Origin: a virus | Lineage: Duplodnaviria; Heunggongvirae; Uroviricota; Caudoviricetes | Length of the DNA stretch: 6,360 bases | Virus record (IMG/VR): IMGVR_UViG_2778261419_000001 | Span: 1-6,360 of that record | Strand: one strand, 5' to 3' | Shown: piece after piece, positions 1-6,360 of the stretch | Layout: each line of letters begins with the position of its first letter | Numbering within the stretch: position 1 is the first letter of the stretch | Made by a program: the position numbers and the translations under genes | The notes under the pieces: generated by a model | Database searches by the model: none | What the model was told of the DNA's origin: nothing | Seen by the model: the letters and a program-made list of their open reading frames with translations, nothing else

Positions 1-195
1 CGCTTACCGCTCATGGGCACCTCTCTTTAAGCCATCTTAAATGACTCTGAGGTGTCTGTTAAACCCGTGGCGATTCAGTTATTGGTATCTCATTACGCAC
101 CATTGCTAAGAAAAGAAAATGCTCTGATGGCACAATTAGGAAGGAGTTGCAAACTGCAGTAGGATTTATAAACGGTGTAATGTCAGTATTTAAAT

Positions 196-215
196 AAGCG
201 CCAATTAAGGCGCTT
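196..215 (-). terminator. Stem-loop overlapping the stop codon of the 187-aa gene; possible intrinsic terminator
   Basis: Perfect inverted repeat AAGCGCC (196-202) / GGCGCTT (209-215) with 6-nt loop. On the minus-strand transcript the stop codon lies in the loop and the stem is followed by AUUUAAAU, which is U-rich but interrupted. Confidence 0.35.
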
Positions 216-768
216 TAAATGGAACGGGAACCTGTAAAGCGTTAGCAGCTATCTCAACTATTTTCTCGTTTGGAATATTTGCTAATATAAAGCGTTCCCT
301 TTCTTGTAAAATTTTGTTTATAACGTAATACACGCTTAACATGCTGAACAACATTGATTCTTCCTTTGCTTTGCAAGAATAGTTATCCACTTTCCAGTTT
401 TCAGACACATAGTCATATTTTGATTTAATTTGCTTTGATAGTAATAGAACATTTTTTAATGCTATTCGAGTGTCTCGATTGTAGTAAGAGTAAATATTAT
501 CTATGTTCTTCTCTAGAATAATTGGTTCAAACGTTTTCCCTAAAGAAATATACTGAAAATCTTTGGGTTTAAATGTGTGTTCTTTTATGCTTTTGCTAGT
601 GGTTTTGATAGATTTCTCTAGTATTGATAATTCATCCTCTAACTCAGTGAATATGCTTTTTTTTAATGTTTTTATCTTTTCTTTTTCCTTTCTAGACTCA
701 ACGTATGGCGCTAGTATAATACCCAAAAGAAAAGTGGTAAAAGGAATTAAGCTTTTGATAATGTCCAT
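205..768 (-). CDS. Hypothetical membrane-anchored protein, 187 aa: one N-terminal transmembrane helix followed by a Lys/Glu-rich soluble domain; cargo (moron) gene
   Basis: Intact ORF with ATG at 768-766 preceded by AAGGA 4 nt upstream. Residues about 5-23 (IKSLIPFTTFLLGIILAPYV) are hydrophobic, then KEKEKIK and a charged domain. Hand-sampled GC is about 30%, against about 55% in the terminase genes. No family recognised. Confidence 0.6.
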   Translation of the reverse strand: MDIIKSLIPFTTFLLGIILAPYVESRKEKEKIKTLKKSIFTELEDELSILEKSIKTTSKSIKEHTFKPKDFQYISLGKTFEPIILEKNIDNIYSYYNRDTRIALKNVLLLSKQIKSKYDYVSENWKVDNYSCKAKEESMLFSMLSVYYVINKILQERERFILANIPNEKIVEIAANALQVPVPFKAP

Positions 769-807
769 GGTTTCCTTATTTTTTCATATGATTAACGCTA
801 GGAAAAT

Positions 808-836
808 ATGATAATAAAAAACTAACGCGTACGCAA
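808..836 (-). promoter_or_regulatory. Candidate sigma70 promoter for the 187-aa gene
   Basis: On the minus strand: -35 TTGCGT (+ coordinates 836-831), 17-nt spacer, -10 TATCAT (813-808), about 35 nt upstream of the RBS. Found by eye only. Confidence 0.3.
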
Positions 837-913
837 AAATTATTGTATCGTGTTAAGAGTGGTTACTTTGTCACGTGGCTTAAGCCCGCCGTCGAGCGGG
901 TTTCGTCGTTTGA

Positions 914-922
914 GGGGGGGGG
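914..922 (+). repeat. Homopolymeric G9 tract (C9 on the minus strand) immediately 5' of an ATG
   Basis: Directly visible: GAGGGGGGGGG followed by ATG at 923. The tract doubles as the Shine-Dalgarno region and spacer for the 66-aa ORF. Confidence 0.9.
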
Positions 923-1123
923 ATGAATCAGACTGGTCAACCCAGCTATGCGCTTTTCGCCGGGAATGATAGTAGCAATCTCAAAACGTTTGTTCTTGAG
1001 GTTGATTGCTACCGTACTGAAGACGCGCTATTAGCAATGGAGAAAGCCATAAGCGAATTAAAAATCTGTCAGCGTCAGTTCGGCTATGGAAATGATTCTG
1101 GTGTCAGAGCTATTATTCGATAA
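923..1123 (+). CDS. Small hypothetical protein, 66 aa; 3' end overlaps the convergent 182-aa gene by 11 nt
   Basis: ATG at 923 directly follows a GAGG plus G-run that could serve as SD. Amino-acid composition is not low-complexity. No family recognised. It could be spurious. Confidence 0.3.
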   Translation: MNQTGQPSYALFAGNDSSNLKTFVLEVDCYRTEDALLAMEKAISELKICQRQFGYGNDSGVRAIIR

Positions 1124-1661
1124 TTCTTTCACCAATAATAACTGGCAATGGAATGAGCACTTCCCAGAATGGTTGATACCCTTCGTAAATCTGTGTTGTT
1201 TCACCCTTCCAGTAAAGATCCAGCCTCTGAGATACTTCTACTGGGGAGCAGTTCAGATTTAACAAATTCATATCACCTCTATGATAGTTCGACGATGAGC
1301 TGACTTGAAATATTGGGGTGTCAAGTGGGGATTTTGAAAAGCCTCTGAACCAGGCGGTTTCTTTTACAGACTCACATGCAAAAATTGATTGGAAGCGCGA
1401 TGGTTTTTCAGGGAAGTGTGATTTCCTTCGTTCTTCCAGTAGTATTTCTATTATTGCTCCAAATCGTTCGTCTGAGCTGACGAGGTTTATGTGGTAGTTG
1501 AAAAAAAGATTATTTGCATGCCGGGATACACCGTCGGAAAACAATGAGCTCGTATGAGCCTGAAGTGGAACGATTGGGCAGTACGGTTCTGCTAATTCAA
1601 TTTTCATGCCTGACTTCAGTGTGCGCTGCCTGTCAAGTGTATAAAAAAGATTGTTCGCCAT
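1113..1661 (-). CDS. Hypothetical protein, 182 aa; cargo gene between the Q region and the late promoter/lysis genes
   Basis: Intact ORF with ATG at 1661-1659. GAAGGA lies about 10 nt upstream, which is rather long spacing. Hand-sampled GC about 40-47%. No transmembrane segment and no motif I can assign with confidence. Confidence 0.5.
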   Translation of the reverse strand: MANNLFYTLDRQRTLKSGMKIELAEPYCPIVPLQAHTSSLFSDGVSRHANNLFFNYHINLVSSDERFGAIIEILLEERRKSHFPEKPSRFQSIFACESVKETAWFRGFSKSPLDTPIFQVSSSSNYHRGDMNLLNLNCSPVEVSQRLDLYWKGETTQIYEGYQPFWEVLIPLPVIIGERIIE

Positions 1662-1861
1662 ATTAATGCGTTCCTTCTGATATTGGTTATTTCTGTTGAT
1701 TTAACGATATCAGAATAGATAAGTATAGTGAATACAATGCCGTAAAAGCGGCAGCACGGCTTCCGTATCTGATAGCTTGGCTGGATGAAATGGCGTCGCA
1801 GCGCTCATAGTGGCAACGATTAGCGGACCTCGGCATTTGCCTGTTTTTATATTTAAGGCCG

Positions 1862-1893
1862 CTGACATCTGGAATTGTCGGGGATTTTTTATT
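1862..1893 (+). terminator. tR'-like intrinsic terminator (end of a 6S-like late leader) just upstream of the pinholin gene
   Basis: Stem CTGACA (1862-1867) / TGTCGG (1876-1881) with one G-U pair, then GGA TTTTTT ATT (T-run 1885-1890). The GTCGGGGATTTTTTAT arrangement resembles the lambda tR' end as I recall it. The Q-dependent promoter and qut site should lie in 1662-1861 but I could not pin down hexamers. Confidence 0.4.
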
Positions 1894-1928
1894 CTCTCAA
1901 TTTGCACCCGCATCTGCGAGGTGGAGTT

Positions 1929-2144
1929 ATGAAATCCATGGATAAGTTAACAACGGGTGTCGCCTATGGCACCTCAGCAGGTAGTGCCGGTTACTGGTTT
2001 TTACAGCTGCTCGATAAAGTCACGCCCTCACAGTGGGCAGCAATAGGTGTGCTGGGTAGCCTGGTATTTGGCCTGCTGACGTACCTGACAAACCTTTATT
2101 TCAAGATTAAAGAAGATAAGCGCAAGGCTGCGAGAGGTGAATAA
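1929..2144 (+). CDS. essD: Pinholin, phage 21 S21-type, 71 aa, with dual start M1/M4 (antiholin/holin)
   Basis: Translation [71 protein letters not shown] matches the S21/EssD pinholin as I recall it. GAGG lies 7 nt upstream of ATG 1929; a second ATG sits at 1938. Stop overlaps the next start (TAATG). The ORF-track start at 1875 is probably not used. Confidence 0.9.
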
Positions 2145-2641
2145 TGCCTCCATCATTACGAAAAGCAGTTGCTGCTGCTATTGGTGGCGGAGCAATTGCT
2201 ATAGCATCAGTGTTAATCACTGGCCCAAGTGGTGACGATGGCCTGGAAGGTGTCAGCTACATACCATACAAAGATATCGTTGGCGTATGGACTGTATGTC
2301 ACGGACACACCGGAAAAGACATCATGCTCGGTAAAACGTATACCGAAGCAGAATGCAAAGCCCTCCTGAATAAAGACCTTGCCACGGTTGCCAGACAAAT
2401 TAACCCGTACATCAAAGTCGATATACCGGAAACAACGCGCGGCGCTCTTTACTCGTTCGTCTACAACGTGGGTGCTGGCAATTTCAGAACATCGACGCTT
2501 CTTCGCAAAATAAACCAGGGCGATATCAAAGGCGCATGTGACCAGCTACGTCGCTGGATATACGCTGGCGGTAAGCAATGGAAAGGCCTGATGACTCGTC
2601 GTGAGATTGAGCGTGAAGTCTGTTTGTGGGGGCAGCAATGA
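2144..2641 (+). CDS. rrrD: SAR endolysin (T4-lysozyme-fold muramidase, phage 21 R21 / RrrD-like), 165 aa
   Basis: N-terminal Gly/Ala-rich weakly hydrophobic SAR segment ([20 protein letters not shown]). Catalytic spacing E-x8-D-x5-T in [16 protein letters not shown]. Near-identical to RrrD as recalled. RBS GAGG upstream; translationally coupled to the pinholin. Confidence 0.9.
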
Positions 2642-3081
2642 GCAGAGTAACCGCGATTATCTCCGCTCTGATTATCTGCATCATCGTCTGCCTGTTATGG
2701 GCTGTTAATCATTACCGTGATAACGCCATCGCCTACAAAGAGCAGCGCGACAAAGCCGCATCCACTATCGCTGATATGCAGAAGCGTCAACGTGATGTAG
2801 CAGAACTCGACGCCAGATACACAAAGGAGCTTGCTGATGCTAACGCGATTATCGAAAGTCTTCGTGCTGATGTTTCTGCTGGGCGTAAGTGGCTGCGCGT
2901 CAAAGCTGTCTGTCCAGACATGCATAAAATCACCGCCGCCTCCGGCGTGGATGATGGCACCAGCCCCAGACTTACTGACACCGCTCAACGGGATTATTTC
3001 ACCCTTAGAAAGCGGATTGAAACCAGTGATAAAATGATCCGAGGCTTGCAGCAATACATTCGCACGCAGTGTGTAAGATGA
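2638..3081 (+). CDS. rz: Rz inner-membrane spanin (i-spanin), 147 aa
   Basis: ATG 2638 overlaps the endolysin stop (ATGA). N-terminal TM helix ([19 protein letters not shown]), then a charged coiled-coil-like periplasmic domain. Ends resemble lambda Rz. The ORF-track start at 2626 is GTG; ATG 2638 is preferred. Confidence 0.85.
2837..3037 (+). CDS. rz1: Rz1 outer-membrane lipoprotein spanin (o-spanin), embedded in the +1 frame of Rz, about 66 aa
   Basis: AAGGAG (2824-2829) lies 7 nt before ATG 2837. Signal peptide with lipobox LLGVSGC, then a Pro-rich region ([14 protein letters not shown]...TPLNGIISP) matching lambda Rz1. The ORF-track start at 2831 is TTG. Confidence 0.8.
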
Positions 3082-3461
3082 GCAATCTTTGCTAATTAGC
3101 CATGAAATAGATAAATATCAGGCCAACGATGATTAGTGCCAGGCATCCTAATTGGTCAGAATGGCTGGCATTTGATCGTCTTGCTCTTCTTGCAGTTGAT
3201 TGGACAGCCCTCTGTCCTCGACTTCCTCTTGGCATTCCTCTCATTTATTCTCTCTCAACATTGATATTGAACTGACAGATGATAATTATTTCATGAAAGT
3301 GGTATCTCGTTGATTTGATTACGCTACATAGTCGCCGGATTTTCGCATTTATCGGCATCGGGCGGTGCAAAATTGGCATAATCGAAACGTAGAGTTTTTG
3401 GCTGACAACAGCATTAGCGGTCACCCGGAGAGTGTTGTGAACATGTTAATTACATGACGCT

Positions 3462-3782
3462 TTAGATGCATCGACATTTGATGATGCTTGTCAGACCTGT
3501 CATTTTCTTTGCTTCATTTTCAACATTGAGGAAGTTGGTTGAGCATATTTTTTGATAATCTCCAGTTGTGAATCCTGTTTTATCGATCTTGCGTTTCAAG
3601 GGATTAATCGTTTTGCAAGATGCTCTATGGATTCTGGTAAAGCGTTCGTCAGATTTATTACCTTTACCTCTGGTTCGCTTCAATGCATTGACAACATATC
3701 CGTCTGGATTATCGCCAAGCCAATTACGATAGTCTGATTCACTCTCAGTCTGAAGGTCACTTCTGAATACCTTTATGGACAT
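3462..3782 (-). CDS. Hypothetical protein, about 106 aa, basic, with a C-x22-C-x24-C-x-C pattern; cargo gene at the bor-equivalent position upstream of cos
   Basis: Intact minus-strand ORF. The second in-frame ATG (3782-3780) has AGGAG 7 nt upstream, so it is preferred over the track start at 3800. About 40% GC. No family recognised. Confidence 0.5.
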   Translation of the reverse strand: MSIKVFRSDLQTESESDYRNWLGDNPDGYVVNALKRTRGKGNKSDERFTRIHRASCKTINPLKRKIDKTGFTTGDYQKICSTNFLNVENEAKKMTGLTSIIKCRCI

Positions 3783-3901
3783 GAAGATACTCCTGTGCAT
3801 TTATGGTACGAAGAAATAGCAAAAGTATTTTTACCGTAAATTGCGAATCTACAAAAGCAAAACAATGCGTAATATCAGAGTGAATATTCTGCCTTTAATG
3901 T

Positions 3902-4096
3902 GGGTCCTTCTGATGACCTGAGCTCTCACGGGGCGGAAGGCGCGCGGGTTTTCGCTATTTATGACAATTTTCCGGTTTAAGGCGTTTCCGTTCTTCTTCG
4001 CCGTAACCTAATGTTTTTATTTAAAACACCCCCTGAAAAGAAAGGAAACGACAGGTGCTGAAAACGGGCTTTTTGGCCTCTGTCGTTTCCTTTCTC
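3902..4096. other. cos DNA-packaging site: cosQ-like GGGTCCT (3902-3908), cosN (12-mer 3931-3942), cosB with R3 (3983-4000), I1 A/T-rich putative IHF region (about 4005-4031), R2 (4035-4054, inverted) and R1 (4080-4096)
   Basis: Collinear with the lambda left end as recalled: CGCGGGTTTTCGCTATTTATGA follows the 12-mer; R3 CGTTTCCGTTCTTCTTCG; R2/R1 form an inverted repeat GAAAGGAAACGACAG / CTGTCGTTTCCTTTC; sits immediately upstream of Nu1. Confidence 0.8.
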
Positions 4097-4119
4097 TGTT
4101 TTTGTCCGTGGAATGAACA

Positions 4120-4665
4120 ATGGAAGTCAACAAAAAGCAGCTGGCTGACATTTTCGGTGCGAGTATCCGTACCATTCAGAACTGGCAGGAACAGGGAATG
4201 CCCGTTCTGCGAGGCGGTGGCAAGGGTAATGAGGTGCTTTATGACTCTGCCGCCGTTATAAGATGGTATGCCGAAAGGGATGCTGAAATTGAGAACGAAA
4301 AGCTGCGCCGGGAAGTTGAAGAACTGCGGCAGGCCAGCGAGACAGATCTCCAGCCAGGGACTATTGAGTACGAACGCCATCGACTTACGCGTGCGCAGGC
4401 CGACGCACAGGAGCTGAAAAATGCCAGAGACTCCGCTGAAGTGGTGGAAACCGCATTCTGTACTTTCGTGCTGTCGCGGATCGCAGGTGAAATTGCCAGT
4501 ATTCTCGACGGGATCCCCCTGTCGGTGCAGCGGCGTTTTCCGGAACTGGAAAACCGACATGTTGATTTCCTGAAACGGGATATCATCAAAGCCATGAACA
4601 AAGCAGCCGCGCTGGATGAACTGATACCGGGGTTGCTGAGTGAATATATCGAACAGTCAGGTTAA
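4120..4665 (+). CDS. nu1: Terminase small subunit (lambda gpNu1 homolog), 181 aa
   Basis: Translation MEVNKKQLADIFGASIRTIQNWQEQGMPVLRGGGKGNEVLYDSAAV... is essentially lambda Nu1 (winged-HTH N-terminus that binds the cosB R elements). It overlaps the A start by 26 nt, as in lambda. Confidence 0.92.
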   Translation: MEVNKKQLADIFGASIRTIQNWQEQGMPVLRGGGKGNEVLYDSAAVIRWYAERDAEIENEKLRREVEELRQASETDLQPGTIEYERHRLTRAQADAQELKNARDSAEVVETAFCTFVLSRIAGEIASILDGIPLSVQRRFPELENRHVDFLKRDIIKAMNKAAALDELIPGLLSEYIEQSG

Positions 4666-6322
4666 CAGGCTGCGGCATTTTGTCCGCGCCGGGCTTCGCT
4701 CACTGTTCAGGCCGGAGCCACAGACCGCCGTTGAATGGGCGGATGCCAATTACTATCTCCCAAAAGAATCCGCATACCAGGAAGGGCGCTGGGAAACACT
4801 GCCCTTTCAGCGGGCCATCATGAATGCGATGGGCAGCGACTACATCCGTGAGGTGAATGTGGTGAAGTCTGCCCGTGTCGGTTATTCCAAAATGCTGCTG
4901 GGTGTTTATGCCTACTTTATAGAGCATAAGCAGCGCAACACCCTTATCTGGTTGCCGACGGATGGTGATGCCGAGAACTTTATGAAAACCCACGTTGAGC
5001 CGACCATCCGCGATATTCCGTCGCTGCTGGCGCTGGCTCCGTGGTATGGCAAAAAGCACCGGGATAACACGCTCACCATGAAGCGTTTTTCCAATGGTCG
5101 TGGCTTCTGGTGCCTGGGCGGTAAAGCGGCAAAAAACTACCGTGAAAAGTCGGTGGATGTGGCGGGTTATGATGAACTTGCTGCCTTTGATGAGGATATT
5201 GAACAGGAAGGCTCTCCGACGTTCCTTGGCGACAAACGTATTGAAGGCTCGGTCTGGCCAAAGTCCATCCGTGGCTCCACGCCAAAAGTGAGAGGCACCT
5301 GCCAGATTGAGCGTGCAGCCAGTGAATCCCCGCATTTTATGCGTTTTCATGTTGCCTGCCCGCACTGCGGGGAGGAGCAGTATCTTAAATTTGGCGACAA
5401 AGAGACGCCGTTTGGCCTCAAATGGACGCCGGATGACCCCTCCAGCGTGTTTTATCTCTGCGAGCATAATGCCTGCGTCATCCGCCAGCAGGAGCTGGAC
5501 TTTACTGATGCCCGTTATATCTGCGAAAAGACCGGGATCTGGACCCGTGATGGCATTCTCTGGTTTTCGTCATCCGGTGAAGAGATTGAGCCGCCGGACA
5601 GTGTGACCTTTCACATCTGGACGGCGTACAGCCCGTTCACCACCTGGGTGCAGATTGTCAAAGACTGGATGAAAACAAAAGGGGATACGGGAAAACGTAA
5701 AACCTTCGTGAACACCACGCTCGGTGAGACGTGGGAAGCGAAAATCGGCGAACGTCCGGATGCTGAAGTGATGGCAGAGCGGAAAGAGCATTATTCAGCG
5801 CCCGTTCCTGACCGTGTGGCTTACCTGACCGCCGGTATCGACTCCCAGCTGGACCGCTACGAAATGCGCGTATGGGGATGGGGGCCGGGTGAGGAAAGCT
5901 GGCTGATTGACCGGCAGATTATTATGGGCCGCCACGACGATGAACAGACGCTGCTGCGTGTGGATGAGGCCATCAATAAAACCTATACCCGCCGGAATGG
6001 TGCAGAAATGTCGATATCCCGTATCTGCTGGGATACTGGCGGGATTGACCCGACCATTGTGTATGAACGCTCGAAAAAACATGGGCTGTTCCGGGTGATC
6101 CCCATTAAAGGGGCATCCGTCTACGGAAAGCCGGTGGCCAGCATGCCACGTAAGCGAAACAAAAACGGGGTTTACCTTACCGAAATCGGTACGGATACCG
6201 CGAAAGAGCAGATTTATAACCGCTTCACACTGACGCCGGAAGGGGATGAACCGCTTCCCGGTGCCGTTCACTTCCCGAATAACCCGGATATCCAACAGCG
6301 TATGGAAATATCATTCACCTGA
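4640..6322 (+). CDS. A: Terminase large subunit (lambda gpA homolog), 560-aa ORF; lambda-like to about residue 551, then a divergent 9-codon tail and stop; probably a C-terminally truncated pseudogene
   Basis: GTG start at 4640. N-terminal 550 aa match lambda gpA (641 aa) as recalled. From about nt 6294 the sequence departs (PNNPDIQQRMEISFT-stop here, versus PNNPDIFDLTEAQQ... in lambda), with in-frame TGA at 6320-6322. Confidence 0.8.
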   Translation: MNISNSQVNRLRHFVRAGLRSLFRPEPQTAVEWADANYYLPKESAYQEGRWETLPFQRAIMNAMGSDYIREVNVVKSARVGYSKMLLGVYAYFIEHKQRNTLIWLPTDGDAENFMKTHVEPTIRDIPSLLALAPWYGKKHRDNTLTMKRFSNGRGFWCLGGKAAKNYREKSVDVAGYDELAAFDEDIEQEGSPTFLGDKRIEGSVWPKSIRGSTPKVRGTCQIERAASESPHFMRFHVACPHCGEEQYLKFGDKETPFGLKWTPDDPSSVFYLCEHNACVIRQQELDFTDARYICEKTGIWTRDGILWFSSSGEEIEPPDSVTFHIWTAYSPFTTWVQIVKDWMKTKGDTGKRKTFVNTTLGETWEAKIGERPDAEVMAERKEHYSAPVPDRVAYLTAGIDSQLDRYEMRVWGWGPGEESWLIDRQIIMGRHDDEQTLLRVDEAINKTYTRRNGAEMSISRICWDTGGIDPTIVYERSKKHGLFRVIPIKGASVYGKPVASMPRKRNKNGVYLTEIGTDTAKEQIYNRFTLTPEGDEPLPGAVHFPNNPDIQQRMEISFT

Positions 6323-6360
6323 AAGGGATGACAGCCGTTGGCGAAGGTGAGTTACTCATC

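Follow-up and report, generated by a model that had tools for sequence, protein, structure and literature searches.

The DNA analysed here, referred to as the window, is a stretch of 6,360 nucleotides (positions 1 to 6,360 of the IMG/VR virus record IMGVR_UViG_2778261419_000001) that covers the late-region junction of a lambda-like prophage. The gene under study, ORF187, is an open reading frame (ORF) of 187 codons located on the reverse strand, and it is the sole gene between a short Q21-family antiterminator gene (Q) and a conserved non-coding block. Sequence comparison of this interval among phages indicates that it is a defence hotspot, the occupants of which are mostly recognised or candidate anti-phage systems. 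ORF187 itself may be a stand-alone, lysogen-expressed, inner-membrane-anchored anti-phage protein carried as an accessory ('moron') gene of the prophage, a reading to which we give an even chance. With respect to its class, ORF187 is a new, uncharacterised member of the reverse-oriented prophage accessory genes present in defence hotspots. The features involved are the following.

205..768, reverse strand: ORF187, 187 amino acids, ATG start, member of phrog_31367
772..776, reverse strand: Shine-Dalgarno sequence AAGGA, 3 nucleotides upstream of the ATG (768-766), reading ...ATAAGGAAACATG on that strand
1..77: end of an insertion sequence (IS) element that interrupts the Q gene (annotated elsewhere as ISEhe3 orfA or transposase)
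78..197, forward strand: 3' remnant of the short Q21-family antiterminator gene (PF06530), last 39 codons and stop, left border of the slot
196..215: GC-rich hairpin with a 7-bp stem and a 6-nucleotide loop, at the junction of the convergent Q and ORF187 genes
806..911, forward strand: conserved non-coding block of about 100 bp, right border of the slot, defined by alignment of seven phages with different cargo
808..836, reverse strand: putative leftward sigma-70 promoter, with -35 TTGCGT (831-836), a 17-nucleotide spacer, and -10 TATCAT (808-813)

ORF187 is a real protein-coding gene under purifying selection, since the ratio of nonsynonymous to synonymous substitution rates (dN/dS) against its homologs is 0.15-0.24 and the chance of 187 open codons, at the base composition of the coding strand, is about 1e-7. 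The GC content of the gene is 30.9%, in agreement with the value of about 30% proposed in an initial annotation of this DNA, versus 46.6% for the whole window, and all homologs are in the range of 30-34%. E. coli has a GC content of about 51%, and ORF187 is AT-rich relative to its host. From base composition alone, targeting and silencing of ORF187 by H-NS in E. coli is plausible.

In every enterobacterial locus, ORF187 is convergent with, and located at most 25 bp from, a PF06530 Q gene encoding 113-116 amino acids. The same loci harbor three holin types (Phage_holin_2_1, holin_3_7/holin_8, and holin_3_1) and two terminase types. Q is 78-87% identical among loci, including those of Shigella phage SfII and of Stx2a_1447, which carry other cargo, while the identity of ORF187 homologs (range 41-99%) falls to 41%. 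Because Q remains at this level of identity regardless of the cargo and ORF187 diverges to such an extent, sequence comparison indicates that the ORF187 locus is a slot and not a partnership with Q. Functional coupling to Q was considered and rejected: neither obligate co-occurrence nor co-evolution was found, Q being equally conserved next to unrelated cargos.

The slot was surveyed by searching viral contigs for exact copies of the core of the block, which led to the identification of 120 loci (L030-L149), 96 of which had this Q upstream. In these 96 loci, the interval spanned 0.6-3.6 kb and contained a total of 209 ORFs, which fell into 60 protein clusters and formed 32 architectures; the reverse strand encoded 96% of the cargo residues. 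Cluster representatives matched KwaB of the Kiwa system (2e-126), AriA/PtuA-type (PARIS/Septu-type) ATPases, AbiLi, NsnB, and mad3, in addition to PDC-M53, PDC-M25, HEC-01, and HEC-04, which are PADLOC candidates. Pfam domains detected among the occupants comprised GmrSD_N, RelA_SpoT, two HEPN families, AbiEii-type AAA domains, and a C5 methylase. Genomes sampled individually harbored PDC-M53 (SfII), a Metallophos-NACHT protein matching PDC-S60, an NA37 pair, and unknown pairs. Relatives of ORF187 were present in three of the 96 slots, each time alone, and a relative was also alone in an additional locus (L007). No remote relationship was found between ORF187 and the other slot occupants. ORF187 therefore displays the occupancy of a defence hotspot, i.e., a fixed position, conserved flanks, and mostly defence-type alternatives. 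A prior description of the slot extending from Q to the block was not found in a non-exhaustive literature search.

The commonest occupant of the slot, present in 13 of the 96 loci, was a pair consisting of a protein of about 185 amino acids with four transmembrane segments and of a protein of about 310-330 amino acids. A representative of the latter had no match in PADLOC. This pair may be an undescribed system.

The block was nearly invariant in the alignment of the seven phages, whichever cargo was present, and was found in 3,164 of the 5,426 complete E. coli genomes (58%). It contains a direct repeat, AACGCG/TACGCA (824-835), followed by TATTGT (841-846), GTTAAGAGTGG, and a hairpin (882-903) with a T-rich tail. 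In the 21Q system, the Q-binding element is a direct repeat located inside the late promoter (PMC6606751). By analogy with this repeat, we read the block as the late promoter, Q-loading site, and terminator for this type of Q. The labels of the individual elements (late promoter, pause site, and Q-binding element) are provisional since a convincing -35 for a rightward late promoter was not found within the block. Scanning the window with Rfam gave no match.

In the reverse orientation, the block seems to supply a promoter for the cargo of the slot. Among the first 24 loci, which represent eight cargo types, 23 had a TAnnnT motif spaced by exactly 17 bp from TTGCGT, itself invariant, and the sequence of the -10 hexamer varied with the cargo. 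In the larger set, the motif was present at 17 bp in 61 of the 96 loci and in 45 of the 73 distinct sequences, versus a background of 2.1%. Allowing 16-18 bp raised the count to 72 of the 96 loci. The leftward promoter overlaps the repeat taken as the putative Q-binding element.

At the other border, the hairpin is formed by the arms AAGCGCC (196-202) and GGCGCTT (209-215), which enclose the loop AATTAA. The initial annotation had located the stop codon inside a perfect 7-bp palindrome at this position. Inspection of the arms confirms this assignment: the loop contains the TAA stop of ORF187 (205-207), and the Q stop (195-197) overlaps the left arm. The analysis adds that the hairpin is common to ORF187 and to the convergent Q gene, that Q is split by an IS element, and that a putative promoter is present in the conserved block. 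The hairpin significantly exceeds dinucleotide-shuffled sequences in stability, with z = -3.65 for the forward strand and -4.86 for the reverse strand. Equivalent hairpins with altered stems were found in three other loci (L008, L010, and L020), and unrelated hairpins were present at the same junction in SfII and Stx2a_1447. These sequence features suggest that the hairpin is probably a bidirectional intrinsic terminator common to Q and ORF187. In one prophage remnant (L010, 8567-8660), no Q gene was called, and the 3' end of Q (…GFVDGVMTAFK and stop) and the junction hairpin were found beside the ORF187 homolog. HicAB is located on the other side of this homolog.

Kyte-Doolittle analysis of the 187 residues of ORF187 revealed a hydrophobic segment at residues 3-21 (19-residue maximum of 1.86) and no second segment. 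In an alignment of 40 family members, 30 had a segment of at least 1.6 within the first 30 residues. In ORF187 and in the family alignment, zero or one K/R residue precedes the segment and about five are present in the 15 residues that follow. According to the positive-inside rule, this distribution predicts an N-out/C-in topology, with a very short external N-terminus (about 3-5 residues) and a cytoplasmic body. An AlphaFold2 model built on 11 sequences (predicted local distance difference test, pLDDT, 85; predicted template modelling score, pTM, 0.79) comprised helices at residues 2-66, 83-95, 98-124, 129-159, and 167-178. The long helix formed by residues 2-66 comprises the membrane segment and leads into a four-helix bundle.

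Thus, hydropathy, alignment, and the AlphaFold2 model support the proposal, made in the initial annotation, of one N-terminal transmembrane helix followed by a soluble domain, which is predicted to be cytoplasmic and is modelled as a four-helix bundle; the membrane helix itself is probable. The soluble domain had also been described as Lys/Glu-rich and highly charged. This holds for its composition (K and E account for 13.4% and 9.1% of the residues of ORF187, respectively, and 47% of residues 23-60 are charged), although the soluble part is confidently modelled as a folded bundle and not as a low-complexity charged tail.

Only three residues are near-invariant across the wide family, G16 in the helix and D45 and R101 in the bundle. 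K5, P9, P21, E24, K27, and E42 are well conserved. The N-terminal hydrophobic helix (about residues 4-22) contains near-invariant G16 and conserved P9 and P21. A conserved face on this helix was considered and is not relied on (moment at 100 degrees, p = 0.02-0.09 according to the choice of the segment).

The search for remote homologs, suggested at the outset, did not lead to any known family. The sole match of ORF187 was phrog_31367 in PHROGs v4, which aligned over the full length of the protein (residues 1-187 versus profile positions 2-188 of 188, E=3.2e-105). This family has no annotation and is therefore silent on function. ORF187 had no match in PADLOC-DB 2.0, and the 40 family members gave scattered single matches only, with E values of 5e-4 or weaker. 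No specific match was obtained with PDB or with viral-structure families. A profile-to-PDB match to MotB (E=1.3e-3) was rejected as compositional, as it involved a hydrophobic helix and a K/E-rich coil and had a per-domain E value of 0.024. A stator of the MotB/ZorB type was also rejected: there is no conserved acidic residue at positions 6-22, and the C-terminal part is a helical bundle. ORF187 differs from MotB by the lack of both the membrane Asp and the peptidoglycan-binding domain. Its likeness to four-helix-bundle sensor domains (4HB_MCP, FAT, and similar) is limited to the generic fold.

The ORF187 family is rare. In a collection of 5.8 billion proteins, clustering at 90% identity gave 10 clusters (E. 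coli and Enterobacter), and about 57 clusters were obtained at 50% identity in a set of 1.8 billion representatives. The members in the 57 clusters have 185-215 amino acids and a common layout. No family member was found in cultured-phage records or, by the patterns tried, in 185,579 species-representative genomes. A search of the 5,426 complete E. coli genomes, even with the sensitivity of blastn, did not detect ORF187 in any of them. Nonetheless, E. coli contigs of 4.7-5.4 Mb are listed as carrying members of the 90% cluster of ORF187, despite this absence from the complete genomes; the two E. coli resources evidently differ in the assemblies that they cover.

Distant relatives of ORF187 were found in integron arrays or chromosomal islets devoid of Q. 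One of them (P0047, 21% identity) is encoded at 10001-10615 of an Aliivibrio sifiae locus (L021), in a chromosomal array (7000-16000) that contains 11 attC-like repeats of about 130 nucleotides starting with TAACAA[AT]nGCATCAACACGAT. Repeat copies at 9868 and 10602 flank the gene, which is a single ORF between attC-type repeats, as in an integron gene cassette; this applies to the distant member P0047 only. The cassettes of the array encode the ORF187 relative, ParE, TacAT, a Shedu-domain protein, and DUF2971, ASCH, and HAD proteins, and their order is shuffled in a second strain. Since a relative is present in an integron cassette, the family appears to function without a fixed partner and to move as accessory cargo. 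Among species-representative genomes, one Psychromonas locus was found, and the contexts in Psychromonas and Permianibacter were uninformative. Neither the close nor the distant family alignment provided usable enterobacterial loci in these genomes.

The reading of ORF187 as an anti-phage protein is proposed because the other occupants of the slot are largely known or candidate defence systems. The initial annotation had suggested an exclusion or abortive-infection effector on the basis of the topology. The general idea is retained on the grounds of genomic context, the topology itself giving no support. A broader proposal, which we hold tentatively and just short of an even chance, is that ORF187 founds a new single-gene anti-phage family and that the slot is an undescribed, self-contained expression socket for defence cargo. 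The cargo is expected to be on in lysogens and opposed on induction since it is preceded by a putative leftward promoter, since this promoter overlaps the putative Q element, and since Q is convergent. ORF187 would be transcribed leftward from the promoter of the slot during lysogeny. On induction, convergent N-antiterminated transcription through Q would oppose ORF187, and binding of Q over the -35 element could possibly add repression. The defence would thereby be active in the lysogen and silent while the prophage itself grows lytically. The cytoplasmic bundle would recognise a product of the infecting phage, and the N-terminal helix (G16, P9, and P21) would then self-associate or engage a membrane partner. 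As a result, the membrane, or a membrane-bound step, would be compromised, leading to abortive infection or to a block early after DNA entry. The combination of a sensing bundle and an effector helix is a conjecture.

Several observations weigh against an anti-phage role. Hotspot location alone is suggestive and falls short of proof of defence, and many occupants of the slot are of unrecognised function. No homology was found between ORF187 and any validated defence protein, and Pfam, NCBIfam, and PADLOC have no family for ORF187 or for the 40 family members. Structural matches of the model were generic four-helix bundles only, designed bundles being top-scoring. No catalytic motif is evident, which is the reason why the effector step is a conjecture. 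The hydrophobic segment is moderately hydrophobic, with two Pro, one Gly, and two Thr residues and a sum of +4 kcal/mol on the Hessa scale, so that the membrane helix is probable and not certain. The -35 of the leftward promoter, TTGCGT, is weak (three of six consensus matches) and is therefore not listed by a consensus scanner. About one locus in four, including that of a 43%-identical homolog (L020), lacks the promoter at the expected distance. Selection on ORF187 in the prophage of the window is uncertain because this prophage is defective, owing to the IS in Q and to a deletion in the terminase gene. Finally, the equivalent slot of DLP12 harbors a porin gene.

The latter observation also bears on the best-surviving alternative, which is lysogenic conversion. 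ORF187 would use the same slot for a non-defence role, such as envelope physiology, stress tolerance, or colonisation. Low-GC morons have diverse roles, and both the porin gene of DLP12, nmpC, though located beside a Q of 47% identity, and the many slot occupants without a recognised function are compatible with such a role. The recognisable occupants are, in contrast, overwhelmingly of the defence type, and the distant relative of ORF187 is found among toxin-antitoxin and Shedu-type cassettes. In addition, the family is patchy, rare, and fast-diverging in comparison to its flanks, as is typical of defence genes. We therefore consider a conversion role unlikely, while giving it real weight.

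Superinfection exclusion (Sie) is a reading that still invokes defence and departs from the preferred explanation in mechanism only. ORF187 would block genome entry at the inner membrane without killing the cell, by acting on the membrane channel or on the host factor required for DNA injection. A small single-pass membrane protein encoded by a prophage is the classical Sie format, as in T4 Imm, HK97 gp15, and lactococcal Sie2009. ORF187 is indeed small, single-pass, and prophage-borne, it is a single gene without a partner, and its conserved intramembrane Gly/Pro pattern could dock on a membrane protein. As only about 3-5 residues are predicted to lie outside, the rest being cytoplasmic, ORF187 is however ill placed to meet an incoming tail tip. 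In Pfam, none of the 40 family members matched SieB (PF14163) or any other superinfection-exclusion family. A separate SieB gene is present elsewhere in related prophages. This variant is less favoured because almost none of ORF187 is predicted to face outward, and we regard it as rather improbable.

A role in regulation of the phage itself, with ORF187 acting as a membrane-tethered, anti-sigma-like antagonist of Q or as a lysis-timing factor, is very improbable. The idea has some appeal as ORF187 always abuts Q in enterobacterial loci, as Q21 resembles region 4 of extracytoplasmic-function (ECF) sigma factors and has been compared to these factors with respect to RseA binding (PMC6606751), and as the Q of Stx2a_1447 has a weak Sigma70_ECF match, ORF187 being a membrane-anchored helical bundle. 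Against this idea, the same Q precedes 31 other unrelated cargos, ORF187 diverges far faster than Q and has distant relatives without Q, the gene lies outside and antisense to the late operon next to holins of varying type, and the domain order is opposite to that of classical anti-sigma factors. A holin, an antiholin, or a regulator of lysis, the last of which had been put forward in the initial annotation, was rejected since ORF187 is antisense to the late and lysis operon and beyond the block, coexists with three holin types, has an integron relative without a phage, and matches no holin family model in Pfam or PHROG.

The remaining part of the window corresponds to the late region, as follows.

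923-1123, forward strand: 66-amino-acid ORF, phrog_10826, on the late strand
1113-1661, reverse strand: DUF2441 protein, 182 amino acids, phrog_5663, overlapping the preceding ORF convergently by 11 bp
1929-2144: holin
2144-2641: endolysin, followed by Rz/Rz1
3462-3800, reverse strand: low-GC (39%) ORF of about 106-112 amino acids, without family match
4120-4665: Nu1
4640-6322: terminase A, truncated

The prophage of the window is defective due to the IS in Q and to a deletion in the terminase gene. IS or transposase sequences matching bases 1-77/83 are present in phages as well as in 1,764 E. coli genomes. The Q remnant encodes residues 76-114 of the 114-residue Q of a near-identical prophage (L001), in which the intact gene continues across the IS junction of the window. 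Intact Q of 114 amino acids is present in the near-identical prophages L001-L006. The Q of L001 was assigned to PF06530 by a precomputed family call, and direct scanning of the homologous Q of Stx2a_1447 gave E=9e-46; the match of L001 Q to the solved structure of Q21 was weak (E=1e-3). PF06530 is listed for both the Q21/Q933W and Q82 families in a preprint (10.1101/651190), evidently a slip. At the other end of the window, the ORF for the terminase large subunit encodes 560 amino acids versus 641. The match to terminase A extends to about position 6291, and the remainder corresponds to DNA that lies about 580 bp beyond this point in other E. coli prophages, hence the assignment of an internal deletion.

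Positions 923-1928, from the terminator-like hairpin to the holin gene, form a second variable region, located where Stx phages carry tRNAs and stx. The 66-amino-acid ORF and the DUF2441 gene accompany ORF187 in E. coli loci and are not found in L007, L008, and L010; L008 has a 65-amino-acid ORF of unchecked identity in the position of the former. A run of nine G (914-922) directly precedes the ATG of the 66-amino-acid ORF, and runs of 9, 10, or at least 11 G were found in the near-identical prophages L001-L006 and L016. This length variation could be due to slipped-strand events in the ribosome-binding region or to a sequencing artefact. The reverse-strand ORF at 3462-3800 is located where related prophages harbor bor and DUF3950, and looks like another swapped accessory gene.

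Taken alone, ORF187 is one more uncharacterised prophage protein, and its value lies in its location. The slot is common, sharply bounded, and can be found with a 16-base motif. It is rich in validated defence systems and also holds many unknown genes, so that a search for new anti-phage systems, such as was made in the P2/P4 hotspots, could be extended to it. An active ORF187 would count as an unusually small defence protein lacking an enzymatic domain, and as a tractable model for the way in which a membrane anchor combined with a simple helical sensor can stop a phage. The arrangement also suggests a simple switch, with a cargo promoter that lies within the presumed Q-loading region and a cargo that is convergent with Q. 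Were the socket reading correct, over half of the complete E. coli genomes would harbor a slot that is provided with a promoter at one border and, at the opposite border, with a bidirectional terminator, its unannotated occupants would be candidate new systems, and Q itself might switch the slot off at lytic entry.

Comparison with known systems places ORF187 and its slot as follows. T4 Imm, HK97 gp15, Sie2009, and AbiP are small and prophage-borne proteins that have one N-terminal membrane helix and apparently act alone, as proposed for ORF187. They differ by the lack of sequence or specific structural similarity, and the bulk of ORF187 is predicted to be cytoplasmic. About 18% of the tested Vibrio integron cassettes of unknown function were anti-phage, and a transmembrane domain is the sole feature given in the description of one of these, the V. 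cholerae cassette Brigantia (10.1101/2024.07.02.601686). Compared by description only, Brigantia is similar to the distant relative of ORF187, as both are single-gene Vibrionaceae integron cassettes for membrane proteins with no known domain. A profile search found no member of the ORF187 family in V. cholerae, and no link to Brigantia is claimed. In staphylococcal prophages, the antisense arrangement of Tha couples a defence gene to the switch between lysogeny and lysis (PMC11087260). The nmpC/lc porin morons of DLP12 and PA-2 resemble ORF187 in being reverse-oriented accessory genes between Q and the lysis cassette, whereas their Q is of another subtype (47% identical), the block is not common to them, and their product is an outer-membrane porin. 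The closest parallel to the slot in its organisation is provided by the P2/P4 hotspots, i.e., variable anti-phage loci in temperate phages and their satellites (Rousset et al. 2022, PMC9122126). Both combine a fixed position, conserved phage borders, and many alternative cargos, which are mostly defence systems with many unknowns. The slot described here differs in that it is located in lambda-like phages, between Q and the presumed late promoter, and in that its cargo nearly always runs antisense to the operons of the phage, with a promoter apparently provided by the conserved flank.

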